From: a virus
Lineage: Duplodnaviria; Caudoviricetes
Length of the DNA stretch: 64,000 nucleotides
Direction: 5' to 3' (one strand)
Virus record (IMG/VR): IMGVR_UViG_3300047322_001193
Coordinates: 1,735 to 65,734 of that record
The notes below the pieces were generated by a model. That model made no database searches, was not told the DNA's origin, and saw only the letters and a program-made list of their open reading frames with translations. Positions 7,824 to 61,512 of the stretch are shown one piece after another; within the stretch, counting starts at the first letter, position 1, and every line of letters begins with the position of its first letter. Position numbers and translations under genes: made by a program.

Positions 7824-8207
7824 ATGGCAGTGCTGCACGATTACGAATGCGACAGCTGCGGCGCACTGGTCGAGGATCTCCCGCTGCAGAAGAAGTCGCA
7901 CCGCTGCCCGAAGTGTAAGAAGGGCACGCTGCAGATCATCTTCCGATCATTACTGGCGCGCAATGCATCCGCACTCGACTCTCATTCAATGACTGTGGTC
8001 TACGAAGATCCTCGTACAGGTAAGGTGGCCTATCCCGGTCGTAATGATGTGCCGATGCCCGCCAGATACCAGCAGCAAGGTTACGTCAGAAAGGAACTGC
8101 GTTCGTTACGCGAGCTCGACAGGTTTAGTGAACGCCACGGTCTGGTCAATGAGGCGGCACACTACAACTCCGGTAACGGTTACGATTCTGAACCCGGACG
8201 GCGCTGA
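7824..8207 (+). CDS. FmdB-like zinc-ribbon protein
   Basis: HDYECDSCG...CPKC immediately before portal. Confidence 0.75.
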   Translation: MAVLHDYECDSCGALVEDLPLQKKSHRCPKCKKGTLQIIFRSLLARNASALDSHSMTVVYEDPRTGKVAYPGRNDVPMPARYQQQGYVRKELRSLRELDRFSERHGLVNEAAHYNSGNGYDSEPGRR

Positions 8208-8209
8208 CA

Positions 8210-36580: not shown

Positions 36581-38085
36581 GTCGACTCGAAGATCCCGCG
36601 ACTCTACCGCCGATGATCCGAGTGAACGCGCCGGATGGTCGTGTGATCCATTACCCCGGCGACACGCCGATCCATGCGATCCAGGCGCATCTCGATTCTC
36701 TATTTCAGACGCCCGAGATGATGCCCGCACATGCTGTGGCACCAGCACCAATCCCAGCACACAACAAGCGGCTCATCCCGACCGCAGCACCAGAACCTAT
36801 CCCGCCATCGACTGTCACTGGTGGTGGCACAGGCTCGATGCTGGACTTCAATCAGAACACCCCCAATACGATCCTCGGTCAGCTCGGCACTATCGGCGAT
36901 ATGGGATCCTCCCTGCTTCGACAATTCGGCGGCGGTACCGACAAGACCTACGAAACCCTCGACACACAGAACTTCTTGCCCGGCCAGCAACCCGCACCAG
37001 GCTCACCGCGTTTCGTCACGAGCGAGAGATACGGTGCGATGGCACCCCCATTCGCGGGCGGCGCTGCGGGTGAAGAAGAGGATCTGCTGCGCTCATTCGA
37101 GCGAATGAAGAAGCACATGCGCCCGGAAGTCGCTGAAGTTCTCGACAAGGGGATGAAGACCCGCATCGCGAGCGCATACTCCGAACTCCCACCCGCCGCT
37201 GAATGGGAAGCCGCTGCTCGTGCTGGCGTCGCCAAACGCGGCTGGTACAAGAACAGCGGTGCCGCCATCAAATCCATGTTCGGTACCGACACCCCACTCT
37301 TCACCGGCGTTCTCGCGGCAACGTCTCCTCGCCAGACAGTAGCCGACAATCTGAAGATGGCCACCCGCGTCTTCGGAGCGTGGGTGGATGCCGGTCGCCC
37401 GGAGTCGGCTGAGGAGATCATGAAGGTCCTCGAAACCGTCCCCGGTGCGAGCATGGGCTCACGAGTACCGAACCAGATCCGGGCGCTGCAGGGCAAACCG
37501 CTGGTAGATTTCGTCGAGCCCGGTGCGGGTGGCAGCGGCTGGAAGGTGGAGTCGTTCCGTCGCAATCTATTGGGTGAAATGGACTACTCGACCAACGACA
37601 CCTGGATGGCGAAATTCATCGGCAAGAATGGCGATTGGTTCGGCAGCAAAGCCAACTACCTCGCTGCTGATGCTATGGCCAGGCAAGTCGGCAAACGCAT
37701 GGGCTGGGAGACCGCAGAAGTTCAGGAAACCGTCTGGTCCTGGATGAAGACTCTTATCGAACAGACCCCAAGTTCTAGTACACTGAAGGAAGGATTGAAA
37801 GGAGTCACCCATGAGCTCATCGCACAAGACCCGGACTTCGCGACCCTCCTCAGCGACCCCGAGATCGCCAAAGAACTTGAGCGAGCCGGGTTCAAACCAC
37901 CCGCCGCAACCGGGAGCCGACCAGGCACTACCGCAGCGAACATTGGAAGAGAAGAAGGCGGTGATCCTCGCGTTCTTGAGAGGGTTGTCCGCCGACTCAA
38001 ACGGCAAGGAATCGAACCGGTAGGCGCGGCCAAGCCGCGCATTGCCGCACCCTCTCCACCACCCCCATCACGACCACCCAGATGA
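36577..38085 (+). CDS. Last virion-operon protein with helical, DNA-glycosylase-like domain
   Basis: GWY...LAATSP...N...KVESF..NL.G...TNDTWM...Y...EVQETVW motif series. Confidence 0.6.
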   Translation: MSRLEDPATLPPMIRVNAPDGRVIHYPGDTPIHAIQAHLDSLFQTPEMMPAHAVAPAPIPAHNKRLIPTAAPEPIPPSTVTGGGTGSMLDFNQNTPNTILGQLGTIGDMGSSLLRQFGGGTDKTYETLDTQNFLPGQQPAPGSPRFVTSERYGAMAPPFAGGAAGEEEDLLRSFERMKKHMRPEVAEVLDKGMKTRIASAYSELPPAAEWEAAARAGVAKRGWYKNSGAAIKSMFGTDTPLFTGVLAATSPRQTVADNLKMATRVFGAWVDAGRPESAEEIMKVLETVPGASMGSRVPNQIRALQGKPLVDFVEPGAGGSGWKVESFRRNLLGEMDYSTNDTWMAKFIGKNGDWFGSKANYLAADAMARQVGKRMGWETAEVQETVWSWMKTLIEQTPSSSTLKEGLKGVTHELIAQDPDFATLLSDPEIAKELERAGFKPPAATGSRPGTTAANIGREEGGDPRVLERVVRRLKRQGIEPVGAAKPRIAAPSPPPPSRPPR

Positions 38086-49190: not shown

Positions 49191-51983
49191 TCATTTGAGC
49201 CCACCCCAGGTCTTTGCGAACGCACCCTTCGCACCAATCGGGATCATCAGCTTCACCGCTTCCTGCAGTTCGTTGCGGATGAGAACATCAGCGACATCAG
49301 CGATATCTTCGTCCATCTCGAAGATTAGCTCGTCGTGAATTTGTAGTATCGGCTCGATGTAATGGCTCTCACTCCACAACTGCGGCAGCACACGCTCCCA
49401 GATCCCTTTCATGCCGAATTTGAAGATCTCCTGCGCTGTGGTCTGGATGTCGTGATTGAGACAGACACGTTCCGTCTCCGATCTCAAACGGTTGTTGAAG
49501 GAATTCATCGCGGGCAGGTATCGAATGCGCCCGAACATCGAACGCACATACGCATTCTGACGGGCTTCGGACTTCTTCTCTTCCATCAACCGGCGCACGC
49601 CAGGATAGGCGTCGACCAGGTACGCATCGATCATCGCTTTGCACTCAACTTCACTGCGGTCGATCCCCCGCAGCTTCATCTGTCCCTGAAGCCCCTGCGA
49701 GGTGAGGCCGTAGACAATGCCGAAGCCGATACTCTTCGCACTGTCCCGTTGCCAGGTGCCTTTGCCGACCTGATCCATAGGGAGTCCGAACACGAGAGAT
49801 GCAGTCTTCTGGTGAATGTCCTCGCCTGAGAGGAAGATGTTGATCAGTGTCGGGTCTTCACTTCGATGCGCCAGCACTCGCATCTCGATCTGATCGAGAT
49901 CCCAGGAGCCCAGCACACACCCGTCTTTGGCGACGAAGCCGTCACGGATCGCTTTGCCCAGCTTCTTGCCACCCACTTCACGTTGCGAGCGGGCTGGGAT
50001 TGCCATCAGGTTAGGTTCGCTGCATGCCAACCGTCCACTCGGTACGCCGGTGATGCGGAGTTTGGGGTGGATCCGCCCGTCCTGCTTCATCCACTTGCCG
50101 AGCCTGTCGGTGTAAGTTCCCTTCATCTTCGACAGCTCGCGGTAGTCAGCGATCAGTGCCAGCACGGGATTGTTATCGAGCATCCGCAACGCTTCGATAG
50201 TGGTGTCATCAGTAGAGGGTTGCTTCGAGTCAGGGTTGTAACGCTGGACCGGCATCTTCAGGACGCTGAACAGAAGGTTCGCGACCTGGAGGGGTGAATT
50301 GGGATTGAGATCGTAGCCGATCTCTTTACGGATCTGCGCCAGACACGCCTTCTTCTCAATTTCGAGGTCACGCCCGAGCTCTTTGAAGTACTCCGCGTCG
50401 ACCTTGAAACCGATGTGCATCATGCGGTCGACCATCGGAATGACCGCGATGTCGAGGTTGTACGCGTCGGTGAGCCCCATATCTTCGATGCGCTGCTTGA
50501 GAATGGGATAGATCACCCAGGTATCGTCGGCATCACCAGCGGAATAGTTGGTCGCCTTCTTACGCCCCTCCGGACCAAACACCGTTTCGAGCGCATCCAG
50601 GCCCGCTTCCGGCATCGCACCAAACATCAGCGCCGCTGCACCGGTCTGGTCGGGCAGATCCTCCTCGACATCCTCCCAACGCTTACGAGGGTCTTTGGCG
50701 GTCTTGGGATCCGGGAAGAGGTGAATGATATCGGGCGGCGCATTCGCACCAGTGAGCGCGGCGTAGGCTTTGCGCGGGGTTCGACACTCGATCCAACCAG
50801 TACGTGTCTTGTTGTACCTGCCGACCGTGATGCCGAGTGCGGTCAGCTCCTTCTTCAGCGCCGTCATCTCTTTCTTGTCACGAGTGCGAGTGCTCAGAAT
50901 CTCGCCCTTGTGCACGCCGAGAATCCCTTCAATGCGCCGGTTCAGCGACTGCGGGCTATAGATCCTGGGCTCCTCATCCTCGAAGTACAACTCCTCCGCA
51001 CTCGGACCCCAGTCGTGATCGGCAATCTTCTCCAGCCAATCCAGCGCCAGCTCGCGACTCGCGGGGCCGATCACTTCCAGGTAACTCTCACGCCGCAGCC
51101 CACGGTGCTGGTATGCCAGTTCCTTGAGCCCAACCACCGAGACGCGGAGCAAGGACGCCATCACCATCGTGTCGTCGAAGTTGGTGACCGTGACCTGCAT
51201 GTCTCGGAGTACTGCCAGATCGTGAAGGGAGTTGTGCAGGATCACGCGGGAGTGCTCGATTTGACGCCGGAACTCGAAGAGCGGGACACGATCATTCACC
51301 CGGATAACGTGAGCGCGCCGCGGCTGGTTCGAGAAGGAGAGCCCCCAGGGGTTGCCCTTCAGACCTTCCGTATCGACTGCTATGAGTGGTGGGTGATGCA
51401 GCCAGTCCACATCACTGGTCGAGGTCGCTTCCAGATAGATGTAGGTAGCGTCGGGAGATTCCCACACCGGCGGCAGCAGCTCACCTTCCAGAACCTTACG
51501 TGCTTGGTCAAAGGCGTACCAGATCTGTGGCTGCAGGTCCGGCTCGTACATGCGCAGGTGGTTCGGGATCACAATTGCCGGGCGGATCAGTTCAGGTGAG
51601 GTGAAGTAGTGGGGCAGTCCGATCACTTCACCCAGATCCACATCCTTACCCAGGAATCGTTGGGTGGGCATACGCCCCAGCGTCATGATGACTTCGGGCT
51701 GGCACATCGAGAGCTGGAAAGAGAGCTCCTCCTCATCGATGTCCTTCTCAGTGATTCCAGAACGGTTCTCCACCACTTTCAGGCAGAGGTTGGTGAGGAA
51801 GACCCGCTGACGACTCCAGCCCAGCACCCAGCGCAGATAGCGGGTCAGCTCGTTGCCCGTAACGGCTCGCGGGTGGAATGGTACGCCCGTCTTCGATTCC
51901 ACTTCACCAGGATGTTCACCGATGATGAGCAGGCGAGCGGGCCAGGGTCCTTGACCTGGAACGATGCTGAATGTGCCACTCAT
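49191..51983 (-). CDS. polA: Family A DNA polymerase with N-terminal uracil-DNA-glycosylase-like domain and 3'-5' exonuclease
   Basis: IGEHPG (UDG family 4-like); DTE, HNSLHD, YSAGDA exo motifs; DLDQIEMR, RDSAKSIGFGIVYG, QIHDE pol motifs. Confidence 0.93.
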   Translation of the reverse strand: MSGTFSIVPGQGPWPARLLIIGEHPGEVESKTGVPFHPRAVTGNELTRYLRWVLGWSRQRVFLTNLCLKVVENRSGITEKDIDEEELSFQLSMCQPEVIMTLGRMPTQRFLGKDVDLGEVIGLPHYFTSPELIRPAIVIPNHLRMYEPDLQPQIWYAFDQARKVLEGELLPPVWESPDATYIYLEATSTSDVDWLHHPPLIAVDTEGLKGNPWGLSFSNQPRRAHVIRVNDRVPLFEFRRQIEHSRVILHNSLHDLAVLRDMQVTVTNFDDTMVMASLLRVSVVGLKELAYQHRGLRRESYLEVIGPASRELALDWLEKIADHDWGPSAEELYFEDEEPRIYSPQSLNRRIEGILGVHKGEILSTRTRDKKEMTALKKELTALGITVGRYNKTRTGWIECRTPRKAYAALTGANAPPDIIHLFPDPKTAKDPRKRWEDVEEDLPDQTGAAALMFGAMPEAGLDALETVFGPEGRKKATNYSAGDADDTWVIYPILKQRIEDMGLTDAYNLDIAVIPMVDRMMHIGFKVDAEYFKELGRDLEIEKKACLAQIRKEIGYDLNPNSPLQVANLLFSVLKMPVQRYNPDSKQPSTDDTTIEALRMLDNNPVLALIADYRELSKMKGTYTDRLGKWMKQDGRIHPKLRITGVPSGRLACSEPNLMAIPARSQREVGGKKLGKAIRDGFVAKDGCVLGSWDLDQIEMRVLAHRSEDPTLINIFLSGEDIHQKTASLVFGLPMDQVGKGTWQRDSAKSIGFGIVYGLTSQGLQGQMKLRGIDRSEVECKAMIDAYLVDAYPGVRRLMEEKKSEARQNAYVRSMFGRIRYLPAMNSFNNRLRSETERVCLNHDIQTTAQEIFKFGMKGIWERVLPQLWSESHYIEPILQIHDELIFEMDEDIADVADVLIRNELQEAVKLMIPIGAKGAFAKTWGGLK

Positions 51984-52711
51984 GATCGCTTCTGCTTCCA
52001 GATCTCTTCCACTACACCCGCCGCGATGCCTTTGCCGATGCCGGTGATCTTGCGCCACTCCTCGACAGGCGCGAGGATCATGTCGACCACACTCGTGTAG
52101 TGTTGCTCGACAGCTTGAGCACGCTTCCAGCCGACGCCTTTCAACTGTGCCGCCATGCGTCGGAGTAGTGATGTGGGTAGGAGTGGCGGCTCGCCCGAGT
52201 AGTCGAACGCGCAGCCAGAGCGGTGTTCATCGAACGTCTTGTCGGTCCACCAATGGTGAAGATTCGAGATGCAGCGCGCCGTCTCGTTCTGGTCGTAGGT
52301 GCGCCGCACATGGACGTTGTAGCGATTCTCCATGGTGGTCAGAAACCCGTCGAGATCGCGATACATCCAGCGTTTGGCACCGAACTCGGCACTGCGCCAG
52401 CCGCTCTTACCTGGCACCTGCAGCACACCGGTTTGTGGATCCGGGCGATAGCGACCCTCCACCACGAGATAGACGCGGTGATAGTCGCGCAGCAGTCCCG
52501 GGAGTTGATGGCCTGCGAATCTCCCGTCCACCATCGAGCACAGCATGTCGGCGAGCGCTTTCCTCTCGACACCGATCATCAGCGGGACGCCTTCCGGGCC
52601 ATTTCCCAGGAACATCGCGTCACCGAACTGCAATCGGCTCAATTTGGCCTGCTGTGGGGTGAAGAACCGCATCAGCTCGCGACTTCCGACTCTGTCGTCC
52701 AACAAGATCAT
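51980..52711 (-). CDS. ERCC4-domain nuclease with HhH
   Basis: LDDR, GD, VERK, VVEG; ITGIGKG HhH. Confidence 0.85.
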   Translation of the reverse strand: MILLDDRVGSRELMRFFTPQQAKLSRLQFGDAMFLGNGPEGVPLMIGVERKALADMLCSMVDGRFAGHQLPGLLRDYHRVYLVVEGRYRPDPQTGVLQVPGKSGWRSAEFGAKRWMYRDLDGFLTTMENRYNVHVRRTYDQNETARCISNLHHWWTDKTFDEHRSGCAFDYSGEPPLLPTSLLRRMAAQLKGVGWKRAQAVEQHYTSVVDMILAPVEEWRKITGIGKGIAAGVVEEIWKQKRS

Positions 52712-52871
52712 TTCGTTTCTTCCAAGGTCGAGCGAGGCGCTCATGGGTTGAGAATCTCCGGCCACATTTCACACAGCGACGGTTGCGCCAGATGCGGCGA
52801 CCGTTATCGACGGGACGCGAATCGATGACGCGGGCGACGCCGTCACACTTGGGATCGGCGCAGCGCATCAT
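52620..52871 (-). CDS. NrdR-like zinc-ribbon protein
   Basis: C..PKC...RVIDSR...RRCVKCGRRFSTHE. Confidence 0.7.
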   Translation of the reverse strand: MMRCADPKCDGVARVIDSRPVDNGRRIWRNRRCVKCGRRFSTHERLARPWKKRNDLVGRQSRKSRADAVLHPTAGQIEPIAVR

Positions 52872-53686
52872 GATTCCCAGTCCTCGACATTGGAGCCGGG
52901 GAACACATCCGCAGCCAGGTATGGGAAGGCGTTGGTGCGCAGCGGCCCGATCTGGCTGTATACCCGATGTGTGATGAGCGGGTTCTGGGTGCACTTCAGC
53001 ACTTTGGCCTGGAACGGTGAGTCGGTATCTTCGGGGTTGAAGTAGGTCTGCACAATTACCTGGCAGGCAAACCCGATATCACTGAACCCCGCCCGCTCTT
53101 TCTTGCCGGTGCGCCTGCCCTTCTCGGTGCCGGTCTTGGCATCGGTGTAGTTCTGCCACTCGTCCTTCAGCCGATGGATCATGATCAGGTTGGTGTCGGA
53201 GTCGAAAGCGGCGCGGATGAGTCGCCTGAACCCGTTATTCACTGCAACGTAGTGATGCGGCATCACATTCGTCAGCTTGCCGAACGCCTCTAATCGTGTC
53301 TGCTCCCAGATCTCGGTGGCGGTGTCCCACACGATGGTGCGGATCTCGGTACTGCGAACGGCGTGATCGTAATCCTTGCGGAATGTCGTCATCACCTGCT
53401 CTGCCAGCAGCTGCGCTTTCGGGTCGTTGGAATCAGGGATGTCGTAGTCGAGCTGGTAGATCTTCTTCTTCGTCGCGAATTGTTTGAGCGTGAACTCGGT
53501 ATTGAGATCGAATTTGAAGAACGCAATCGGACCGGGCGCTGTCAATGCGAGATCGGTCTTGCCGGTGCCCCAATCGCCTTCTATCGACATCACCATGCGA
53601 CGTTTGATGGTGGAGTCGACCAGTTTGAAGTTAGGCGGTAATTGACCAGTAATGGGTAGAGTAGATTGTGTCGTCTGAATGGGCAT
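52868..53686 (-). CDS. P-loop ATPase (AAA_24 / Sak4-like)
   Basis: GDWGTGKT Walker A; IVWDT Walker B. Confidence 0.8.
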   Translation of the reverse strand: MPIQTTQSTLPITGQLPPNFKLVDSTIKRRMVMSIEGDWGTGKTDLALTAPGPIAFFKFDLNTEFTLKQFATKKKIYQLDYDIPDSNDPKAQLLAEQVMTTFRKDYDHAVRSTEIRTIVWDTATEIWEQTRLEAFGKLTNVMPHHYVAVNNGFRRLIRAAFDSDTNLIMIHRLKDEWQNYTDAKTGTEKGRRTGKKERAGFSDIGFACQVIVQTYFNPEDTDSPFQAKVLKCTQNPLITHRVYSQIGPLRTNAFPYLAADVFPGSNVEDWES

Positions 53687-53698
53687 CTGAATCTCCTT

Positions 53699-54280
53699 CT
53701 ATAACCAGCCTTCAGCACGTGCGTGGTTGACACACATCTGAAAGGCGTCATCGACTTCTTGTTGTGTGAATTGGAATTGATAGGCGCGGATCTGTGGCCC
53801 GGACCCTTTCCAGTCACCGACGATGAACCAGACCCGTAATCGTGCGGTGAGGGTCGCCAGCGCCTTGCAGTAGCACTTCATCTGCACATGCCAGTGCCAG
53901 AAATAGCTGGTGTCGTCGATCTCGTGGGATGACGACACGTACGTTGCTTTGTATTCTTCGAGCGCGTAATCGGACAGGTCAATGGCGTCGGGTGACATCG
54001 CGATCCCTGACAGATACAGCTCGCCGGGCCTGACCAGCACGCCATCCGACTTCTTGACTGCTGTGTCGCGGAAGACCTCACTCAAGAAGCGCTCCCACAT
54101 GAATCCCATCGAGAAGTACCCCTGACGTGTCTGGTTATCAGTGTCGGGGTAGCGTTTGCCATGGATCGACTTGTCGATGGCCGAGATGATCTGACCGAGG
54201 TGAAGCCCGGTAGAACGTGGGGTATCGGCTTCACTGTAATCTTCAGCGACGATCTCGAACGGGATGGGCGCGACGATCAC
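53699..54280 (-). CDS. PD-(D/E)XK exonuclease
   Basis: SPDAID...EEYKAT...QMKCY. Confidence 0.8.
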   Translation of the reverse strand: MIVAPIPFEIVAEDYSEADTPRSTGLHLGQIISAIDKSIHGKRYPDTDNQTRQGYFSMGFMWERFLSEVFRDTAVKKSDGVLVRPGELYLSGIAMSPDAIDLSDYALEEYKATYVSSSHEIDDTSYFWHWHVQMKCYCKALATLTARLRVWFIVGDWKGSGPQIRAYQFQFTQQEVDDAFQMCVNHARAEGWL

Positions 54281-54459
54281 GATTCCACCTCCGGTTCGAT
54301 ACCGTCACCACCGTCAACGACCTGGATTCCTTCCAGCTTGCAGGAGATGCAGCACTGTGTCTTCGCGACGTAACAGCACAGACCGATGAGATCCTTACAG
54401 ATCGGACACGGGGCCACTTCCCGCGTGAACTCACCACAGATGCTGCAATATCCCTGCAT
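54277..54459 (-). CDS. Small Cys-rich zinc-finger protein
   Basis: GGAGG RBS; CSIC, CPIC, CC, CCISC. Confidence 0.65.
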   Translation of the reverse strand: MQGYCSICGEFTREVAPCPICKDLIGLCCYVAKTQCCISCKLEGIQVVDGGDGIEPEVES

Positions 54460-54468
54460 GCCTGCCTC

Positions 54469-55254
54469 CTATGCGCCTGCGTAGACGATGCTTCCGTTCG
54501 CGGCGTCGTAGAACACACCACGCTCCACCAACGACCCGAGGAACGCGTCCTGGATCAGTATCTGCAGGATCGGCGAACGGTTGGCGTCGGCGGGAAGCTG
54601 GTTGAACACGGCAGTGGCGAGCGTCTTCTTGTCGAGCGTCTTGTCGGGTGCAGCCTTGAGTGCGATCACCAGAGCGTTTGCGGCTGCGGGTTCGAGAGCG
54701 CTATCGACTGCCGCCTGAGACCCATTCGCGCCTTTCGCCTTGCTCGCGGGTGCGCCCTTGCTCGCGACAGCGACGCCCATGGCCTGCAGGTTGTGGATCT
54801 TCGCGACCACCGCCAGCGCCTTCTTCTCCATCTTCTTGTTCCCGATCTGGCGCTCTTTGGTGGCCTCGTGCATGATGTCGACATCCAGCCCCATCAGGAG
54901 CGTGATGTCGTTGCCGAGCTTGTCTTCCGGGAAGTTCGCGTTCACGAGTGCGTGAAGGAACTGGAAGAGGTTGGTGCCGTCGTTCAGACCACCAGAGCTG
55001 CCGACCTTGCGCAGCCGCTTGCCGTCTTCGCTGGGGGTGAGGTTCTTGATATCGCCAGCCGAGTAGTACTGGGTATAGGTGCTGTCGTCGGTGCCCTTGT
55101 ATTCGACACCGAGCGCAGGTACTGCATTCGGCTGCGTGCCGTTGTAGTCCCACAACGTGAACTTGGCTTCGAGGATCTTGTAGCGGCCTTCCGGCACCAT
55201 ACCGCCGCCGTGGATCGCATCGCTGGGCTTCAGACTTACATATTCATCAGACAT
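54469..55254 (-). CDS. Putative single-stranded DNA-binding protein
   Basis: VPEGRYKI N-terminus; position in replication module; AGGAG RBS. Confidence 0.55.
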   Translation of the reverse strand: MSDEYVSLKPSDAIHGGGMVPEGRYKILEAKFTLWDYNGTQPNAVPALGVEYKGTDDSTYTQYYSAGDIKNLTPSEDGKRLRKVGSSGGLNDGTNLFQFLHALVNANFPEDKLGNDITLLMGLDVDIMHEATKERQIGNKKMEKKALAVVAKIHNLQAMGVAVASKGAPASKAKGANGSQAAVDSALEPAAANALVIALKAAPDKTLDKKTLATAVFNQLPADANRSPILQILIQDAFLGSLVERGVFYDAANGSIVYAGA

Positions 55255-56881
55255 GATTGGAATCTCCTATGTTGAGTTTGGGAAGCGGGTCAGAGAGCGT
55301 GAGATCGGAACGAACAGCGGCCTGGAACCAGCGCGGCGCGAATTTGCGGTGTCTGCGCCAGAACCAGGTCCACTGGTCGTCGATGATGAACACTTCGCAC
55401 TGGTCGTCTGCAGAGCGCATGCCACGGCCACTGGCCTGCACAATCGTCTGCATGGCGACATACGGACCGTAGTCGGCGTCCTGCTCACTGCGGGCTTTGG
55501 TGATCGAGGAACGGGTATCAGGAAAGGGAATCTTCGCGATGATGGCGTACTCGCACTCTTCAAACGGCAGATCCCATCCGGTTGTCATTGACGGGCTGAC
55601 CAACACTGCGGGCGGATCGGCGCGTCGGAACTTCTCGACGACGGTACGTGTATTGGTGCCGTCGTGAACGTGCATGATGGAGCGGTTGCGCGAGAGCGAG
55701 AACAGCAGGTTGCGCCGCGCATAGGATGTGGTGTGGATGACACCCTTCCTGTCCTCGCGCCTGTCGATGATCTGGTCGATACGGTTCACCCAGGTGCGCT
55801 GCTCCACATCGGTCCACTTGTGATGACAGCGCACTGATGGGACGTAGATCACCGGGCGGCGCGAGACAGGAAACGTGCTGGGATACTCGAAGAACTGGAA
55901 GTCCTCTTTCTTCACACCCAGATATTCCAGCGTCTTCTCCTTGATCGTGGCCGACACCAGCACCACTCGCGGGATATTCAGAAAGAGGTACTTCTCCGCG
56001 TACGGTGCTGCCCAGACGGGCGCGATCCTGACACGCTTCGGTTCGCGTTCCACCACCCAGACGCCTTCCATCTGCGCGATCACTTGAATGCGTTTCAGCA
56101 GGCTCTTCAGCGTGTGTGCCTCCCGCAACAACGCCGTCTCCGGGTGATCGCCGGAATCGCGAGCGGCCTTGATCTGATCATCGAGAGACGCGACACGGTA
56201 CTGGGTGACAGCACAAACTTCCTGCGCCCAGCGCTTCCATACGAGCGGGTCTTCACCGGCAGGCATGTGGCGACCGAGAATGGTCTCGACGTCAAAGTCG
56301 TTGAGTTCCACTTCCATCGAAGAAGCCAGTTCGTCGGGTGCGTTGTGCGCTTCATCCATCACCAGCAGATCGAACTTGCCGAGTCCATCAGAGTAGCGGT
56401 GCTGTGCGATCCAATAGGTGTAGTTGGTGACGACCAGCTTCGCGGATCGCGCCGCCATGACAGCATCGAAGTAATAGCAGCCGCCTTTACGCAGACTGCA
56501 CAGCGCACCGGCATGACAGGGACCGGCATCGCAGTTCTCACTACCCGACAGGCCCTGACCCCGAAACTCGCCGCCGAACTTGAGCGCCTTGCACGGGTAG
56601 TTGTTCTGGCCGCGCACGTCGACCAGACCGCACTCGGCGAAATCCTGAACGAGTTGGGTTTGTAGACCTTTGGTGGAAGTGAGGATTGCCGTGCGTTTGC
56701 CGGTGAGGATGGCCTGGACGATGTACATCACCGTCTTGCCGAAACCGGTAGGAGCGTTCGGAACCGCAAATCTCTTATCGCAGTCGATGAGGGCGAGTAC
56801 GGCGCGATCCTGAGATGGACGCCAGCCGACGAACTTATCCGGGAGTCCGAGAAGTGCCGGGTCGGGAAGGAGGAGGCTCAT
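55247..56881 (-). CDS. DinG/XPD-family helicase
   Basis: APTGFGKT, DEAH, Fe-S Cys cluster, QASGRGMR. Confidence 0.9.
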   Translation of the reverse strand: MSLLLPDPALLGLPDKFVGWRPSQDRAVLALIDCDKRFAVPNAPTGFGKTVMYIVQAILTGKRTAILTSTKGLQTQLVQDFAECGLVDVRGQNNYPCKALKFGGEFRGQGLSGSENCDAGPCHAGALCSLRKGGCYYFDAVMAARSAKLVVTNYTYWIAQHRYSDGLGKFDLLVMDEAHNAPDELASSMEVELNDFDVETILGRHMPAGEDPLVWKRWAQEVCAVTQYRVASLDDQIKAARDSGDHPETALLREAHTLKSLLKRIQVIAQMEGVWVVEREPKRVRIAPVWAAPYAEKYLFLNIPRVVLVSATIKEKTLEYLGVKKEDFQFFEYPSTFPVSRRPVIYVPSVRCHHKWTDVEQRTWVNRIDQIIDRREDRKGVIHTTSYARRNLLFSLSRNRSIMHVHDGTNTRTVVEKFRRADPPAVLVSPSMTTGWDLPFEECEYAIIAKIPFPDTRSSITKARSEQDADYGPYVAMQTIVQASGRGMRSADDQCEVFIIDDQWTWFWRRHRKFAPRWFQAAVRSDLTLSDPLPKLNIGDSNHV

Positions 56882-56882
56882 G

Positions 56883-56956
56883 ACATGCGCACATGCGCAC
56901 ATCTGCACATGCCCCCTTGTACCCTTACCCCCCTACCCCCTACCCCCCTAACCCCC
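56883..56956 (-). repeat. ACATGCGC tandem repeats plus six G-tracts (G-quadruplex motif)
   Basis: - strand GGGGGTTAGGGGGGTAGGGGGTAGGGGGGTAAGGGTACAAGGGGG. Confidence 0.8.
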
Positions 56957-57061: not shown

Positions 57062-57676
57062 TCAGAGTTCCTCGTCTCCATCAACCGGTACGTGGATGAA
57101 CTTGCTCGGCTGAAGGTTCACGAACTCCAACTTGCTCTCGGCGATGGCACGGACGTCAGCGAACCGCTCCTCGATGCCATCCAACCAGGCCCGGCCCCAG
57201 TACGGTTCGGAGATGAGGGTCGACTCCGCACGCCGCTTCTCGCCCGCCAGGATGTAGGAGATCTCCCCCCAGGCCTTCTTCTTCTGCAGGTCGGCGATGG
57301 ACTCGGTGAGGTGGTCGAGGTGGTTGAGGATCGCTGCAGCGGCCATCCTTCGCCTCACAACGGCGTTTGCAGCGTCGATGTTGGCCTCGACGGATGGGAC
57401 GGCCTTCTCGATCCGCGAGAGCTGTAGGCAGGCCAGGAAGAAGCCATACCGCATCAGGTCGCCTGTAGTGCGGAATGGGAACTTCTTGCTGCCACAGATA
57501 TCGGTGCCCCAGGCGAGAAGCTGGCCGGGTGCTCGAAACTGGCAGCGAGCGGAGTCGCCATTCTCGTCAACGGACGGGATGACGAATTCATCGGATGAAT
57601 GCTGGAATCCGGGTTCTGGGTCAGGCTGATCGATCTCAGGCATCGTGAAATAGCGACGACGACGGGTCTCGGCCAT
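57062..57676 (-). CDS. Hypothetical protein with RHH-like segment
   Basis: GGAGG RBS; RCQFRAP..L......FRTTGDLMRYG. Confidence 0.7.
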   Translation of the reverse strand: MAETRRRRYFTMPEIDQPDPEPGFQHSSDEFVIPSVDENGDSARCQFRAPGQLLAWGTDICGSKKFPFRTTGDLMRYGFFLACLQLSRIEKAVPSVEANIDAANAVVRRRMAAAAILNHLDHLTESIADLQKKKAWGEISYILAGEKRRAESTLISEPYWGRAWLDGIEERFADVRAIAESKLEFVNLQPSKFIHVPVDGDEEL

Positions 57677-57843
57677 AAAGCTGCCTCCGTACGTTGGCGA
57701 ACATTGAATTGTTGGATTAGGGAAGTCGGGTCGGGATGTTCAAGCGCCGTCTGATTGGGGCGGTGTCGTCTGAGCAAACCGGCGAGACGGGAAGCAGACT
57801 ACACCCGCACCACACTGTAGTACAGCCACAAAATCTAGTGTTG

Positions 57844-58695
57844 TCAGTAGGGATCTTCCGCAATTTCGGAGAAGCGCTCTTCCCACTGCTCGAACATGCG
57901 ATCAGAGCTGATATCGGATTGCTGCCAGTTGGTGGGGACGGAGCCGACTTCGACCCGAGAATGGCTGTCCGTCTCGATCTGCGAGTTCCAGTCGTGGGCC
58001 GCCCACACTGCCATGAGAAGTGCGCGCATGCGGTCGTCGTGAGCGCCATACGCGGCTTTGGCGGCCATCTTGATAGGATCCTGCACGCAATCGGTCATCT
58101 CCTCCACAAAGTAGTCGCTGCGGATGATGATGCCGCCACGATTGATGTGTCGTGAGCCGCGGATCCAGAGATCGCGCACGGATTTGGGTGATGCGGTCCA
58201 ACCCAGCACGTTGGTCGGTTTGGTGGTCATGGAATCGAGGTATTTCCAGACGAAATGGTTGGTGTAGCCGTGCGCGTTGATCATCTTCCGTAATGTGAGG
58301 AGTCCCGGTCCGGGATAGACCTCGATGATGCAGAGACACTGCTCGTCATCACTCTGACCGCTGTAGAGGCGACCCAGCACGTTTGCGACGTCTGCCAGGT
58401 CCTCAGGGTCGATGGGAGCCGCGTATTCGCACACCTGGACGTCAGGTTTGCCCATTCGACCGACTTTGATGATCTCGATAGCGCCATTATCGGTCTTGGT
58501 GTCGTCTTCGGTTCTGAGCGTGCGATCCCAGTTGGTGATGCCGACAGTCGGGTCGATTCCCATCACATAGGTTGCTCGCGGGTTGGGTTCTTCAAACATC
58601 CAGCAGATTCCACGCGGATCCTGGTCGAGCATGGTGCTGGGCAGCAGCTCGAGATGGTTGGTGCCCTGGATTGTGTAGCCGGTGGGTCGGCTCAT
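57844..58695 (-). CDS. Terminase large subunit, nuclease (RNase H-like) domain as a separate gene
   Basis: YVMGIDPTVG, DNGAIEI, IIEVY, HDDRMRA. Confidence 0.85.
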   Translation of the reverse strand: MSRPTGYTIQGTNHLELLPSTMLDQDPRGICWMFEEPNPRATYVMGIDPTVGITNWDRTLRTEDDTKTDNGAIEIIKVGRMGKPDVQVCEYAAPIDPEDLADVANVLGRLYSGQSDDEQCLCIIEVYPGPGLLTLRKMINAHGYTNHFVWKYLDSMTTKPTNVLGWTASPKSVRDLWIRGSRHINRGGIIIRSDYFVEEMTDCVQDPIKMAAKAAYGAHDDRMRALLMAVWAAHDWNSQIETDSHSRVEVGSVPTNWQQSDISSDRMFEQWEERFSEIAEDPY

Positions 58696-58913
58696 CGTTC
58701 GCTCCACCATCCCAGGCGCACCGACTTCGAGAAGCAGGTGAGCCAGAGACCGGTAAAGAGCTTGGTCTCACCTTGCTGGTAAGCTCTCCGGTAGAAACCA
58801 ATGGACATCAGAACGAAATGGCGAGCATCGATCAAAGGAACGCGCAGCCAGCTCGACCACATACCATCCCGATAAGACCAGGCGATCCATCCCACATCCG
58901 GTGAGTACTTCAT
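58692..58913 (-). CDS. 73-aa Trp-rich ORF inserted between the terminase halves
   Basis: GGGAG RBS; ATGA overlaps at both ends. Confidence 0.6.
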   Translation of the reverse strand: MKYSPDVGWIAWSYRDGMWSSWLRVPLIDARHFVLMSIGFYRRAYQQGETKLFTGLWLTCFSKSVRLGWWSER

Positions 58914-60139
58914 AAACTCCCAACTCTCACGTCGTAAGGCTTGCCACGCGTACATTCCAGCCGCAGGCGCTCGATAACTTCCGGACTGAATGCAGCAACA
59001 GTGGTGTGCTGGAAACTCTCCTCGGGAGTGGCGGCATAGTTGGTCAGGAAGAGGTTCAGCTTGCCCGCATCGAAGTATTCACGGCGGGTGGTCTCATACC
59101 AGTACAGCGTGTCTCTGCCGAGCAGCGCGTCGTAACCCACGAACTCGCGTGACGTCTCGTACACTTTCTTAGCGTGCATCAGAGTGAGATCGGATGGCGT
59201 CCAGGCGGGAGGTGGAGTACGGCGATATTTCTTCTTCTCCGCATAATACGGTACGAAGCAGTAAACCCAGCGCGCTGTACGACCCGCCCGCACACGCTCT
59301 GTGAATTCATGCCAGTAATTGCGCCGACCCTGGGCTGTCGATTCCAGGATGCAGAGGGTGTACGGGTTCTGGGGTAGTGTCGGGAAGAAGTCGTGTTCCA
59401 GCATGTCGGGATAGCTTAGTGATGCGACTTCAGTGATGTGCGAGACGTCGAACTGGCGGCCCTGACCGAGACCGGATTGTTGGTTGCCTTGCTGGTACAG
59501 AATTCGCGAGTTCAGCGCTTCAAGATAGATGTGCTCACCCTTGACATTGAAGCCCGGAGAATCAGGCCAGCCGCGGGGACTCAGATACCATGGCAGGTTG
59601 TCAAGGATTAATTTGTCGCGGTCGTAGAGCTCTTGAACCTTGTCGTCATCCACTGACGCTGCCATGCCTCTTGTGTGAGGGTGCAGAGTCAATCGATGCA
59701 TGCACGCCACTCGGGAGTACATGGTGTGACCGACCTGGCGATCCTTGTGGTCGACGATCAGAATTCCATCAGCAGTCGCTCCAATCTTGAGCGCATCGAC
59801 ACCCAATTCCTCAGCGCGGGCAATCTTGTCGTGCAGGATCTGTTGCGTCTCCCATAACTTCAATTTGCCGATGCCGCCACCCTCGACACCGTCGCGCTGG
59901 ATTGTCGCGTACCGTTCAGCCCAGTATAAGAAGTCGATGGGGCAGAGTAGACGCTCGTTGCGAATAAACGCGCTCTCCTCCTTGCTGAGCGGGCGTTTCA
60001 GCTGGCCATCCGCCTTTCTCAGTGATTGGAGGTGGTCGGCGATATCGAGCACGTTAGGGACGTCGTAACGGATGAGCTTGAAGCCGAATTCACGCTCCAG
60101 GCGCTCCACATTCTCCTGTACGACGCGTTGGGAATACAA
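58910..60139 (-). CDS. Terminase large subunit, ATPase domain
   Basis: KDRQVGHT Walker A, SHITEVA Walker B, LESTAQG coupling motif, YAATPEESF. Confidence 0.88.
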   Translation of the reverse strand: MYSQRVVQENVERLEREFGFKLIRYDVPNVLDIADHLQSLRKADGQLKRPLSKEESAFIRNERLLCPIDFLYWAERYATIQRDGVEGGGIGKLKLWETQQILHDKIARAEELGVDALKIGATADGILIVDHKDRQVGHTMYSRVACMHRLTLHPHTRGMAASVDDDKVQELYDRDKLILDNLPWYLSPRGWPDSPGFNVKGEHIYLEALNSRILYQQGNQQSGLGQGRQFDVSHITEVASLSYPDMLEHDFFPTLPQNPYTLCILESTAQGRRNYWHEFTERVRAGRTARWVYCFVPYYAEKKKYRRTPPPAWTPSDLTLMHAKKVYETSREFVGYDALLGRDTLYWYETTRREYFDAGKLNLFLTNYAATPEESFQHTTVAAFSPEVIERLRLECTRGKPYDVRVGSL

Positions 60140-60144
60140 AGTAG

Positions 60145-60387
60145 CTACTCCTCAGCCTGTTTACCGACTTTGCCGATCTGTTCAGCCAATTCGGTGAAGT
60201 AGTCGCGCTCCTCATCCGTGTAGAGCGTCACCGGGTCGGCACCGCTGGTGTCGGCTACTGGAGGTCGGATGTGGATGCCGGTATAGGCCAATTCGAGCTC
60301 TTTGATGTCGTTCATGCGCTGTAATTCGAGCCGAATGGCCCGCAATTCACGAATAACCGGCTTCAAACGCATCAAATTGACGTTCAT
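60145..60387 (-). CDS. Hypothetical protein
   Basis: Coupled ORF in terminase operon. Confidence 0.7.
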   Translation of the reverse strand: MNVNLMRLKPVIRELRAIRLELQRMNDIKELELAYTGIHIRPPVADTSGADPVTLYTDEERDYFTELAEQIGKVGKQAEE

Positions 60388-60656
60388 TCGACCAGCCCCT
60401 GCTTCTTCATGTAGTACTGCTTCCAGAAGGGCGACAGGGTGCGGTCGACGAGGTCGCGTTCATCGGACCAGGCGAGCTGGAACGCTATCGTGTTGGTTCG
60501 GGCGAGCCAGTCCATCTCGGCTGCGGTTGCCAGCTTGATTTCGGTCTTCGGGATGAAGATCTTGCGCTCACCGGGCACCCAGAGCAGCTTCTCGGGGTCC
60601 AATACCGCGGTCGTCGTGACTCCCGCCATCAGATTCAAGAATTGTCGTCTGTTCAC
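60384..60656 (-). CDS. Protein with Tat-like N-terminus
   Basis: MNRRQFL...LDPEKLLWVPGERKIFIP. Confidence 0.7.
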   Translation of the reverse strand: MNRRQFLNLMAGVTTTAVLDPEKLLWVPGERKIFIPKTEIKLATAAEMDWLARTNTIAFQLAWSDERDLVDRTLSPFWKQYYMKKQGLVE

Positions 60657-60889
60657 TTGTCCACCACCTTAATTTGCTCGACGTCATCAATCGTCATCGC
60701 GTACTCATCGCTCAGGATCTTGAGAAATGGCCCTAGCAGGCTGGGATCGCTGAAATGCACGCGTAATGGGCATCGCCAGGCGCATGCTTTGGCTAATTTC
60801 GCCAGATCGTCGTCGTATTCATCGAGTCGGAAGTCGTAAAAGTTCAACTTGCGCTCAGGTCTGGGACCCAACCACACGCGCCAGCTCAT
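60653..60889 (-). CDS. Hypothetical protein
   Basis: Overlap coupling. Confidence 0.65.
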   Translation of the reverse strand: MSWRVWLGPRPERKLNFYDFRLDEYDDDLAKLAKACAWRCPLRVHFSDPSLLGPFLKILSDEYAMTIDDVEQIKVVDK

Positions 60890-61512
60890 TCGCCGCCGGT
60901 GCCGAGCTTGAGGACCTTCTGCGAGGTCATCAGGAGCTCTTCGAGAGCGGAATCCATGCCGAAATTGTTGTTCTGGACCGCAAACATCGGTACTTTCTTG
61001 CCAATTAACCCCGCTGCTTCACTCACGATCTCGCGGGCGACCTTATCGCCCACGTGGCGCACTAATCCGGTCTCGTTACATACCGGACACGCTCGGATAA
61101 TGGGCTTCTTGCCATCATCGCCACCCTCACTGACGCGTTTCAGGCCGTCACAGCGCGGGCAACAGACCATACTGGAGCGCGCATCTTCCACCATATCCGC
61201 CATCATGTCCGGCACCTTCGACATCATCCGCATCATCCCGACGTGGAGCTGGTGATTGCGCCAGATATCGTCCACTTCACTCAAACTGACGTTGAACTTC
61301 TTGCAGAGTGAGGCGAAAGAGCTGGTGCGGTAGGCCGGATCCAACCTTGCTGCCAGGAGCATCTCGATCTTCGGCTCAGAACACACTTCAAGAGCCGCCT
61401 GGAACTCGGTCTCGGGCACGTTCTCGATGAAACGGCGCATCGCTTTGTCAGCGCGGGGGCGGACGGGCAGCTTGCGACCCGCATTATCACGACCTTTACC
61501 GGCTCTCGGCAC
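60886..61512 (-). CDS. Terminase small subunit candidate with DnaJ-type zinc finger
   Basis: GGAGG RBS; HTH-like N-terminus, CPRCDG...CPVCNETG; upstream of TerL. Confidence 0.55.
   Translation of the reverse strand: MPRAGKGRDNAGRKLPVRPRADKAMRRFIENVPETEFQAALEVCSEPKIEMLLAARLDPAYRTSSFASLCKKFNVSLSEVDDIWRNHQLHVGMMRMMSKVPDMMADMVEDARSSMVCCPRCDGLKRVSEGGDDGKKPIIRACPVCNETGLVRHVGDKVAREIVSEAAGLIGKKVPMFAVQNNNFGMDSALEELLMTSQKVLKLGTGGE

Follow-up and report, generated by a model that had tools for sequence, protein, structure and literature searches.

A tailed-phage large terminase encoded as separate ATPase and nuclease genes, with a variable gene slot at the domain boundary

The locus described here lies in a 64,000-nucleotide stretch of the Caudoviricetes record of a soil phage from IMG/VR (IMGVR_UViG_3300047322_001193), and this whole stretch is referred to as the window. 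The phage record is rated 100% complete. An earlier note, made from the sequence alone, had described a separate ATPase gene, a 73-aa Trp-rich ORF, and a nuclease gene of the large terminase (TerL) at this locus, and the three ORFs were confirmed at those coordinates, all on the minus strand and each in a different frame (Table 1). They are called ORF1 (ATPase), ORF2, and ORF3 (nuclease) below. As had also been described, both junctions are ATGA overlaps, the ATPase TGA overlapping the ORF2 ATG and the ORF2 TGA overlapping the nuclease ATG, and both downstream genes have a Shine-Dalgarno-like site of their own, GGGAG and GGTGGAG, respectively. For ORF2, an 87-aa reading from an ATG at 58955 is likewise open, and the nuclease ORF reaches 58710 (288 aa) in the program-made ORF listing.

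Table 1. Features of the divided terminase locus in window coordinates.
Feature	Position	Strand	Details
GAGGAG Shine-Dalgarno-like site	60148..60153	(-)	8 nt upstream of ATPase TTG; read directly from the sequence
TerL ATPase gene (ORF1)	58910..60139	(-)	409 aa; TTG start 60139; TGA stop 58910-58912
GGGAG Shine-Dalgarno-like site	58917..58921	(-)	3 nt upstream of ORF2 ATG
ORF2, Trp-rich orphan	58692..58913	(-)	73 aa, 7 Trp; ATG at 58913
GGTGGAG Shine-Dalgarno-like site	58702..58708	(-)	6 nt upstream of nuclease ATG 58695
TerL nuclease gene (ORF3)	57844..58695	(-)	283 aa from ATG 58695; stop 57844-57846

The identity of ORF1 was analyzed by profile and structure comparison. The ORF1 family profile matched the ATPase of T4 gp17 among PDB sequences (3ezk, E 1.3e-4), and a weak TerL match in PHROGs was obtained for ORF1 only (E 0.057). 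Foldseek analysis of the ORF1 AF2 model (pLDDT 89.6) returned the T4 gp17 ATPase domain as the top match (2o0j, E 1.3e-10, 343 columns), followed by 2o0h and 3cpe and then by the TerL proteins of T7, P74-26, D6E, Sf6, and HK97. ORF1 thus matches the N-terminal ATPase domain of T4 gp17 over its whole extent and has, in its model, the ASCE/P-loop ATPase fold of a TerL. Its motifs had been described as all intact, which holds insofar as they are recognizable and conserved, but they are not canonical. At the position of the Walker A Lys of T4 (SRQLGKT), the family sequences carry His in 17 cases, Ala in seven, and Met, Gly, or Leu in one each, and the canonical G-K-[ST] lysine is thus absent at the T4-aligned position from 27 of 27. 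An invariant K132 was found six residues upstream of this position, giving the pattern K132-x-R-Q-x-G-x-T, which we take to resemble the deviant P-loop of lambda gpA. Similarly, the T4-aligned Asp of Walker B is replaced by Thr in all 27 sequences, in which the next residue, Glu237, is invariant. With neither the lysine of Walker A nor the aspartate of Walker B at its T4-aligned position, ATPase activity is assumed from this family-wide conservation. ORF1 ends in a low-confidence tail of 10 residues (..RGKPYDVRVGSL), which contains the family-conserved PY[DE] motif.

The same analysis was conducted with ORF3. Neither ORF3 nor the other two ORFs matched any Pfam family at E ≤ 1, and a tblastn search of 50,697 phage records with ORF3 gave no match. 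The ORF3 family profile matched the nuclease of RB49 gp17 (3c6a, E 8.5e-6). With the ORF3 AF2 model (pLDDT 84.4), Foldseek matched T4 gp17 (3cpe, E 4.7e-9), the RB49 nuclease (3c6a), and the proteins of G20c, P74-26, and SPP1, together with the herpesvirus nucleases HSV pUL15 and HCMV UL89. All 37 nuclease family members share residues D48, D69, E125, D220, and D221 without exception. When the profile is aligned with RB49 gp17, D48, E125, and D220/D221 fall on acidic positions of that protein; the nuclease triad of T4 gp17 is described as D401/E458/D542 (PMC3012670). ORF3 has, in its model, an RNase H-like terminase nuclease fold.

Next, the position of the break was compared with fused relatives. 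In the fused TerL of Tunturi_1 (723 aa), residues 1-406 align to ORF1 and residues 444-719 to ORF3, and no part of the protein aligns to the spacer of the window. The fused relatives P0035 and P0071 likewise show the two halves of the window without missing residues. The break sits in the interdomain linker, 5-8 residues past the conserved PY[DE] motif, and a stop codon, a frame change, and the 73-aa ORF lie between the domains, which sets the locus apart from a canonical single-chain TerL. A duplication of the linker had been suspected from the segments TRGKPYDV and SRPTGYTI. This was refuted, as the two segments are identical at only 2 of 8 residues and stand consecutively in the normal linker of fused relatives such as P0071 (...GRPYEF...GQTITIP...). 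A split intein was also considered and rejected, because the three ORFs gave no Pfam match and the flanks of the break align with the fused relatives' linker with no extra residues. No intein splicing blocks were found at the break, and the 5-8 residues after the last conserved ATPase motif are too few for a split-intein half.

The distribution of the split was then analyzed among relatives, which were metagenome assemblies throughout. Lengths of 360-433 aa were found for 112 of the 120 best-matching proteins related to ORF1, and only three of the 120 were seen as ATPase-nuclease fusions. At the DNA level, 57 of 80 IMG/VR loci are split at the same site with a nuclease gene nearby, and three further loci are split with a nuclease found by profile search, giving 60 of 80; the others are fused (17), probably fused (one), or cut by contig ends (two). 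The ATPase of split relatives is 33-76% identical to that of the window. A metagenome scan with a single-protein query found no relative, and one with an alignment query found 52 loci. In 37 of these, among them the closest relatives (65-76% identity), the contig includes the 3' end of the ATPase gene, and all 37 genes end at the conserved position. One relative was found among genome contigs, on a 3.5-kb MAG contig, and it is likewise split. The genome G002, which is complete (63,022 nt) and has terminal repeats, gave one match for each half: an ATPase gene at 34995-36185 on the minus strand and a nuclease gene at 8018-8842 on the plus strand, so that ~26 kb and a change of strand separate the two genes. 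Fused forms comprise distant relatives and a few members within the split clade; the tree that would place an ancient split before rare re-fusion is a quick FastTree tree with several long branches and one mislabelled row (L134). From these comparisons, the split is judged to be old and inherited through a large clade of ~58-67-kb soil and freshwater phages. The counts among IMG/VR and metagenome relatives and the unlinked genes of G002 support the proposal of the earlier note that this TerL is made as separate ATPase and nuclease chains. We infer the separate polypeptides, and their stoichiometry, from the DNA.

The content of the junction varied between loci. There is no spacer in 26 of the 57 split IMG/VR loci, where the nuclease gene starts between −26 and +6 nt of the ATPase stop. 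The genes of the split loci L042, L134, and L053 overlap or abut. The frame of the nuclease relative to the ATPase differs by locus among split relatives, being +1, +2, or 0. Such zero-spacer loci with varying frame rule out an intervening intron as well as any single recoding rule. The other 31 loci have a spacer of 112-2264 nt with mutually unrelated genes, and across all relatives the spacers run from overlap to 3.5 kb. Genes found there encode DNA methylases, HNH endonucleases, DUF7178 proteins, and small orphans, with domain matches to N6_N4 methylase (E 2.5e-22), Methyltransf_24 (E 1e-20), DUF7178 (E 3e-16), and HNH_3 (E 7e-13 in two loci, L006 and L015, and weak in L041). The junction of the closest relatives holds an 80-aa basic ORF and a 517-aa ORF, and an ortholog of the latter is present in the window at 36577-38085 on the opposite strand. 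Of 25 distinct loci that have a spacer, 14 have it filled by one ORF, and an ATGA/ATGA arrangement like that of the window was observed in L005, L014, L028, L031, and L052. Since the ATPase and nuclease are independent cistrons, the junction would tolerate insertions and would have become a cargo slot, in which the start of the cargo gene is usually fitted, as it appears, onto the ATPase stop and its own stop onto the nuclease start.

ORF2, which occupies this position in the window, shows coding-like codon usage, with a score near the bottom of the range for genes of this phage. Its codon-usage score of 0.184 was reached by 1 of 306 out-of-frame segments of the phage's genes, and 6 of 153 in-frame segments were as low. 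A word-based search of 5.8 billion protein clusters returned only ORF2 itself, and no Pfam or PHROG match was obtained. Its ESM Atlas neighbors were all below 0.9, none of them informative, and the Atlas model has a pLDDT of 0.51. A profile search yielded three more small proteins (P0122, P0123, and P0125; E 5e-13 to 4e-6); P0124 (563 aa, 7 repeats) was dropped as a repeat artefact of this search. When the family alignment was scanned against IMG/VR, the L008 contig alone was found, where the homolog is a 98-aa ORF directly downstream of the nuclease gene and not between the halves. ORF2 thus has four weak homologs, and protein-level conservation extends over the five members of the family. 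Free-standing homing endonuclease was rejected as an identity for ORF2, because no HNH, GIY-YIG, LAGLIDADG, or similar nuclease domain was matched in Pfam or PHROG. Because the L008 homolog follows the terminase genes instead of separating them, ORF2 appears to be a passenger and not an adaptor, and we infer both its expression and its dispensability for packaging. Given the low-end codon score and the tiny family, ORF2 could also be a decaying or non-functional insert.

Taken together, we consider it highly probable that the locus encodes a two-chain large terminase, split in the linker, with the junction serving as a cargo slot and ORF2 as its cargo. One cistron would provide the complete ATPase (motor) domain and the other the complete RNase H-like nuclease domain, and the two chains would come together without a covalent link to form a working terminase. 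The simplest relatives have a nuclease start codon that overlaps or abuts the stop of the ATPase gene, an arrangement that would couple the translation of the two genes. ORF2 would be one cargo gene inserted ATGA-to-ATGA, and by this mode of insertion the coupling chain from ATPase through ORF2 to nuclease would persist. A joint reading that goes further has, in our judgment, a small but real chance of being correct. The nuclease would be an exchangeable trans-acting subunit, the coupled slot a dedicated site for late accessory-gene expression, and ORF2-type proteins would act on packaging. The ATPase ring alone would then translocate DNA, the cutter would be recruited via the conserved PY[DE] tail at initiation and at headful cleavage and at no other step, and ORF2-type proteins would, for instance, hold the free nuclease in check or mask terminase surfaces from Avs-like sensors. 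Escape of the split terminase from Avs-type defenses, which the earlier note had raised, is speculative.

Alternatively, ORF2 might be a functional part of the terminase, as an adaptor bridging the two chains or a regulator of the nuclease. It is placed exactly between both genes and would be translationally coupled to each, its sole located homolog (L008) also adjoins a nuclease gene, and its family shows conservation at the protein level. An essential adaptor is, however, expected to be conserved along with the split, and this was not observed: nothing lies between the genes in 26 of 57 split relatives, unrelated genes lie there in the others, the DNA examined from the closest relatives (65-76% identity) contains no homolog of ORF2, and the protein-cluster search retrieved no second copy. 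Complex prediction with ORF2 as a partner of both halves gave a score of 0.13 (mark 0.32), which counts neither for nor against binding. From the distribution of ORF2 among relatives, we regard this role as improbable, so that of the two options raised earlier for the small ORF, adaptor or passenger, the evidence favors the passenger.

Recoding, by programmed frameshifting or a ribosome hop over ORF2, could yield a fused chain besides or instead of the separate ones. Overlapping stop/start junctions and a need for stoichiometric expression would fit such a mechanism, and a bypass of 50 nt is described for T4 gene 60 (PMC10732093). In the window, though, a hop of ~215 nt across an open, coding-like ORF would be needed, and the variable frames (+1, +2, or 0) and spacers (overlap to 3.5 kb) of the relatives leave no possibility of a single conserved recoding signal. 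Recoding is thus very improbable as a general explanation; low-level frameshifting may give some fused protein in zero-spacer relatives.

Splicing of the spacer was also considered, in which the ~200 nt would be removed as a self-splicing intron or another kind of spliced element, leaving an mRNA for a single-chain TerL. In other phages, terL is indeed divided by group I introns, whose splicing is proven by RNA reads (PMC12880540), the Twort terminase is described in three CDS (PMC13729910), and fused relatives show that the coding sequence of the window is complete. Nevertheless, an Rfam search of positions 57500-60400 at E ≤ 10 returned only chance-level snoRNA and IRES matches, the spacer fold is no stabler than that of shuffled sequences (z = 0.21), and no Rfam family reached the gathering threshold at 18 relatives' loci. 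In addition, the spacer-free relatives (26 of 57) retain the stop and frame change, the spacer of the window is a coding-like ORF with ATGA overlaps at both ends, and the halves in G002 are ~26 kb apart on opposite strands. Removal of these ~220 nt by splicing, which the earlier note had named as what would overturn its reading, accordingly finds no support, and the intron explanation is close to refuted.

Finally, an artefact or a decaying terminase of a defective phage has a negligible probability: metagenome assemblies do carry frameshift errors, and two indels would give three frames in 2.3 kb, but contigs from other runs (X3, 58589-58747 and 58827-59073; X5, 58817-58967) show 0 differences across the two junctions, four runs gave no indels or joints, the stop falls at this point of the linker in many relatives too, neither half varies in its catalytic residues, the record is rated complete, and the halves have nothing missing compared with fused forms, so that the sequencing frameshift doubted at the outset, and misassembly likewise, are unsupported.

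The two-chain terminase bears on how packaging motors work, as TerL translocation models disagree on whether the nuclease must be hinged to the ATPase domain. In the electrostatic model for T4, the C-domain is described as moving against the N-domain via a hinge (PMC3012670). The present clade is a natural experiment on this point, being large and apparently successful with the domains on separate chains, and with unlinked genes in one genome. If such enzymes package DNA, a covalent hinge would be unneeded, and the conserved C-terminal tail of the ATPase would be a candidate docking element. The junction is also a defined spot at which to seek accessory genes, among them those for methylases and endonucleases and small orphans of the ORF2 type, that would be co-expressed with the packaging machinery. 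When genomes of this clade are annotated, a ~400-aa "TerL" followed by a ~280-aa ORF without a Pfam match should not be called truncated or broken.

Several known systems resemble this locus in part. T4 gp17 shares both folds with it, as well as the acidic residues of the nuclease. It is, however, one hinge-linked chain, whereas the window phage encodes two polypeptides, and the positions of the Walker A lysine and the Walker B aspartate are substituted throughout the window family. TerL inteins occur among family relatives, three of which (P0075, P0084, and P0101) carry one (PF14890) at the P-loop of the ATPase gene; the break between ATPase and nuclease shows no intein features. The Jug phages and Twort share with the window an essential packaging gene in fragments with intervening DNA, and the HNH genes in the spacers of L006, L015, and L041 recall terL genes with introns and homing endonucleases. 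In the Jug phages, RNA splicing restores one chain (PMC12880540), whereas no intron model matches the window. Moreover, in contrast to Jug and Twort, the window clade is often spacer-free, and its break is always at the domain boundary and never within a domain.

The closest parallel was found in Arthrobacter cluster AY phages, whose TerL ATPase and nuclease domains are described as two consecutive genes (PMC11920828). TerL does normally consist of one chain, as the earlier note states, but splits between ATPase and nuclease that occur naturally had already been annotated, and this kind of terminase is known. In literature searches on split TerL, that genome announcement was the only source found for a split at the domain boundary. 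Examples are BillyTP, RadFad, and Isolde; in BillyTP, gene 2 spans 600-1679 and gene 3 spans 1663-2259. As in the window phage, the two domains are in separate cistrons. BillyTP and RadFad are annotated without a gene between the halves, whereas the window clade has variable cargo there. The AY split is also narrow: of the records that match the BillyTP nuclease gene, 19 have an identity of 90% or more and the remaining 655 stay below 60%, and those of the 655 that stand in a sampled listing of 40 are all annotated with a single terminase gene. The split of the window clade, in contrast, reaches relatives at ~33% identity. No actinophage was among the tblastn matches of ORF1 or ORF3, and homology to the AY genes was undetectable by this search, indicating that the two splits are parallel and belong to different lineages. 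The window clade is therefore an independent and much larger case of a split TerL, one with a cargo slot between its halves.

On the minus strand of 57844-60139, three ORFs lie in succession, each in a different frame: a TerL ATPase gene (ORF1), a Trp-rich ORF (ORF2), and a TerL nuclease gene (ORF3). Both junctions are ATGA overlaps, in which the TGA of ORF1 is shared with the ATG of ORF2 and the TGA of ORF2 with the ATG of ORF3, as the earlier note had correctly described together with the coordinates. The TTG start of ORF1 was supported because relatives begin with the same MYS... residues. The source IMG/VR virus record (65,734 nt) is rated 100% complete. Same-strand replication genes, with no portal gene, follow the terminase genes, and none of the four small ORFs upstream of them could be identified as a small terminase. 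The claim that the junctions are not sequencing errors held: a 25-kb contig of run X1, which may be the source sample, crosses the whole stretch with zero differences, and contigs of X3, a run of a different study (58589-58747 and 58827-59073), and of X5 (58817-58967), which together cover both junctions, also showed 0 differences, indicating that misassembly was not involved. Neither indels nor alternative joints were found in the contigs of four sequencing runs.

Coordinates of the features in the window and in relatives (L, loci of relatives from the IMG/VR and metagenome sets; G, whole records of relatives)
Feature	Location	Strand	Remarks
ORF1, TerL ATPase gene	60139->58910	-	409 aa; TTG start; GAGGAG 8 nt upstream
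ORF2	58913->58692	-	73 aa; 7 Trp; GGGAG 3 nt upstream
ORF3, TerL nuclease gene	58695->57844	-	283 aa; ATG at 58695; GGTGGAG 6 nt upstream
Four small ORFs	60145-61512		upstream of terminase genes
90-aa ORF	60384-60656	-	upstream of ATPase gene; twin-arginine-like N-terminus (MNRRQFLNL...)
Replication genes	within 49191-56908	-	DinG/Rad3-like helicase (phrog_2488), Sak4-like annealing protein, DNA polymerase (phrog_17)
Ortholog of 517-aa spacer gene	36577-38085	+	502 aa; at end of plus-strand module
517-aa gene between TerL halves	L093:1245-2798; L085:4558-6111		closest relatives of window
97-aa spacer ORF	L026:2773-3066
G002 ATPase gene	34995-36185	-	one match, profile search
G002 nuclease gene	8018-8842	+	one match, profile search

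Pfam gave no match for ORF1, ORF2, or ORF3, and PHROGs gave a weak TerL match for ORF1 only. At 28% identity (E 3e-21), tblastn connected ORF1 with a TerL annotated in Tunturiibacter phages, a single chain of 723 aa whose residues 1-406 align to ORF1 and 444-719 to ORF3, with no part of it aligning to the spacer. The ORF1 family profile (27 sequences) matched the T4 gp17 ATPase (E 1.3e-4), and the AF2 model of ORF1 (pLDDT 89.6) aligned over 343 columns with the ATPase domain of T4 gp17 (E 1.3e-10). Similarly, the ORF3 family profile (37 sequences) matched the RB49 gp17 nuclease (E 8.5e-6), and the AF2 model of ORF3 (pLDDT 84.4) resembled the terminase nucleases of T4, RB49, G20c, SPP1, and herpesvirus; the acidic nuclease residues D48, E125, and D220/D221 were invariant in 37/37 sequences. 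In the T4 gp17 alignment, the motifs of the ORF1 family (ORF1 residues 129-141 and 229-239) follow the patterns K-x-R-Q-x-G-[H/A]-T and H-x-T-E. In 27/27 family sequences, the Walker A Lys position was occupied by another residue and an invariant Lys stood six positions before it; the Walker B Asp position was Thr in 27/27, followed by an invariant Glu. Therefore, the statement that all motifs are intact needs qualification: the ATPase motifs are conserved family-wide but deviant at these two positions. The P-loop may be of the lambda gpA-like deviant type.

Separate ATPase and nuclease genes are common to much of the family. Among the best 120 protein relatives of ORF1, 112 are 360-433 aa long and 8 are 653-711 aa. 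Six of the long ones were inspected: P0011, P0035, and P0071 were judged genuine fusions of ATPase and nuclease, whereas P0084 is an intein-bearing ATPase ending at the usual site, and an intein of the same family is present in P0075 and P0101. This intein (PF14890) lies within the ATPase gene directly after ...KARQLG of the P-loop, also in L033-L039, and in all these relatives the usual break between ATPase and nuclease genes is nevertheless present. In P0011 (711 aa, 72% identical), the domains are joined by a 36-residue Gly/Pro-rich stretch, absent from other fused forms, which looks like a former spacer read through.

In the IMG/VR set (80 loci, 30-60% identity), 57 loci have an ATPase gene that stops 5-8 residues past a conserved PY[DE] motif and is followed downstream by a nuclease gene; 17 have a single open frame, and 1 more is open up to the contig end. 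The other 5 gave no tblastn nuclease match, and a whole-record profile search placed the nuclease gene in 3 of them: about 3.5 kb downstream of the ATPase gene in G001, 135 nt downstream in G003, and, in G002, a complete genome of 63,022 nt with terminal repeats, on the opposite strand at a distance of about 26 kb. The metagenome set comprised 52 loci, 15 of which end before the ATPase 3' end; the remaining loci stop at the conserved site (37/37), including the closest relatives (65-76% identity). These counts are not additive with the IMG/VR ones because some contigs are common to both sets. In a FastTree of 98 distinct ATPase sequences, with the fused Tunturiibacter phage TerL as outgroup, the window fell within a 74-row clade of 71 split, 2 fused, and 1 undetermined rows, the fused ones (L004, L023) each being nested singly; farther rows included one wholly fused clade. 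As read from this quick tree with long branches, the split would be old and re-fusions rare.

Recoding, splicing, and an intein were considered as alternatives to two chains. Recoding at the junction was rejected, since no rule is common to the loci: with the ATPase frame as reference, the nuclease gene lies in frame +1, +2, or 0, depending on the locus. In L003, L046, and L048, the two genes share a frame and are separated by one stop codon (TAA or TAG), which a start codon follows within 0-6 nt; reading through this stop would yield a fused chain. An intron has no space in 26 of the 57 split IMG/VR loci, where the distance from the ATPase stop to the nuclease start is -26 to +6 nt (as ATGA, TAATG, or direct abutment). 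Against Rfam, the window region matched neither an intron nor any other family with the cutoff relaxed to E <= 10, and 18 relatives' loci matched none, and the spacer RNA fold showed no extra stability over shuffles (z 0.21). A split intein was excluded because the few residues flanking the break all align with the linker of fused relatives; by the same alignment, the linker duplication suggested earlier is not real. For G002, separate polypeptides appear to be the only simple reading. At the level of DNA, there is good support for the core of the earlier interpretation, a terminase with a predicted separate nuclease chain.

The codon-usage score of ORF2 was 0.184 over 65 non-overlapping codons, where windows of the phage's long genes averaged 0.369 (sd 0.137) in frame and -0.466 (sd 0.172) out of frame. 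This score was reached by 1/306 out-of-frame windows, 6/153 in-frame windows were as low, and the other two frames at ORF2 scored negative. A word-based protein search matched nothing besides ORF2 itself, and no fold or family was assignable with Pfam, PHROGs, or ESM Atlas. A two-sequence profile run against 1.84 billion representatives recovered a further three small proteins of 94, 97, and 109 aa, at E 5e-13 to 4e-6, the common pattern being W..W.R..L...S.G....FTG...F....G.W. The sole homolog with known context (98 aa, L008) starts 6 nt past the nuclease stop, at a locus where the ATPase and nuclease genes overlap directly. We conclude that ORF2 is probably a real but rare, fast-evolving small gene, mobile around the terminase genes, and a passenger rather than a conserved adaptor.

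The remaining 31 of the 57 split IMG/VR loci (25 distinct) have spacers of 112-2264 nt, and the longest reach 2380 nt (metagenome set) and about 3.5 kb (G001). Their contents are unrelated from relative to relative: an N6_N4 DNA methylase (L005), a second methylase-like ORF (L052, weak match), HNH_3 endonucleases (L006, L015; weakly L041), a Methyltransf_24 protein of 413-435 aa (L020, L021, L025, L027), a LAGLIDADG-looking ORF with no Pfam match (L021), a DUF7178 protein of 703 aa (L012), signal-peptide-like small proteins (L007, L010), and many orphans. The junction of the window's closest relatives holds an 80-aa basic ORF and a 517-aa ORF, and no ORF2 homolog was found in these relatives. 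The window has its ortholog of the 517-aa gene (45% identity, E 2e-116) about 21 kb away, in the opposite orientation, and the TerL junction may be a point of module rearrangement. The ortholog is also a distant relative of the DUF7178 cargo. The L026 spacer ORF is homologous to the 90-aa ORF upstream of the window's ATPase gene (E 3e-12). Of the 25 distinct spacer-bearing loci, 20 have a cargo ORF beginning at the ATPase stop, 23 have one ending on the nuclease start, and 14 have a spacer filled by one ORF; the ATGA/ATGA arrangement of the window recurs in L005, L014, L028, L031, and L052. Since cargo ORFs usually fit both ends of the junction, selection for coupling nuclease translation to the upstream sequence is suggested.

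TerL proteins commonly contain inteins, as do some of the present relatives, in the P-loop. Splits of terL by group I introns are documented in Jug phages (PMC12880540), the TerL of Twort is likewise split (PMC13729910), and most Arthrobacter cluster AY phages are stated to have TerL divided at precisely the ATPase/nuclease boundary, as two adjacent genes (PMC11920828). In the record of BillyTP, a cluster AY phage, these are genes 2 and 3, with an overlap of 17 nt. The cluster AY split has a narrow range: of the 674 records that matched, 19 were at least 90% identical, and sampled others were annotated as single genes. A sequence relation between the cluster AY TerL genes and the present family was undetectable. 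The limited set of literature covered yielded no description of the present clade, of unlinked TerL halves, or of a cargo slot between them. The ideas of Avs evasion and of ORF2 as an adaptor are speculative. Thus, the kind of arrangement is already known, being annotated in one cultured phage cluster; new are the depth and breadth of the TerL split in a clade unrelated to cluster AY, a genome with unlinked TerL halves (G002), and a hypervariable, presumably translationally coupled cargo site, of which ORF2 is one occupant.
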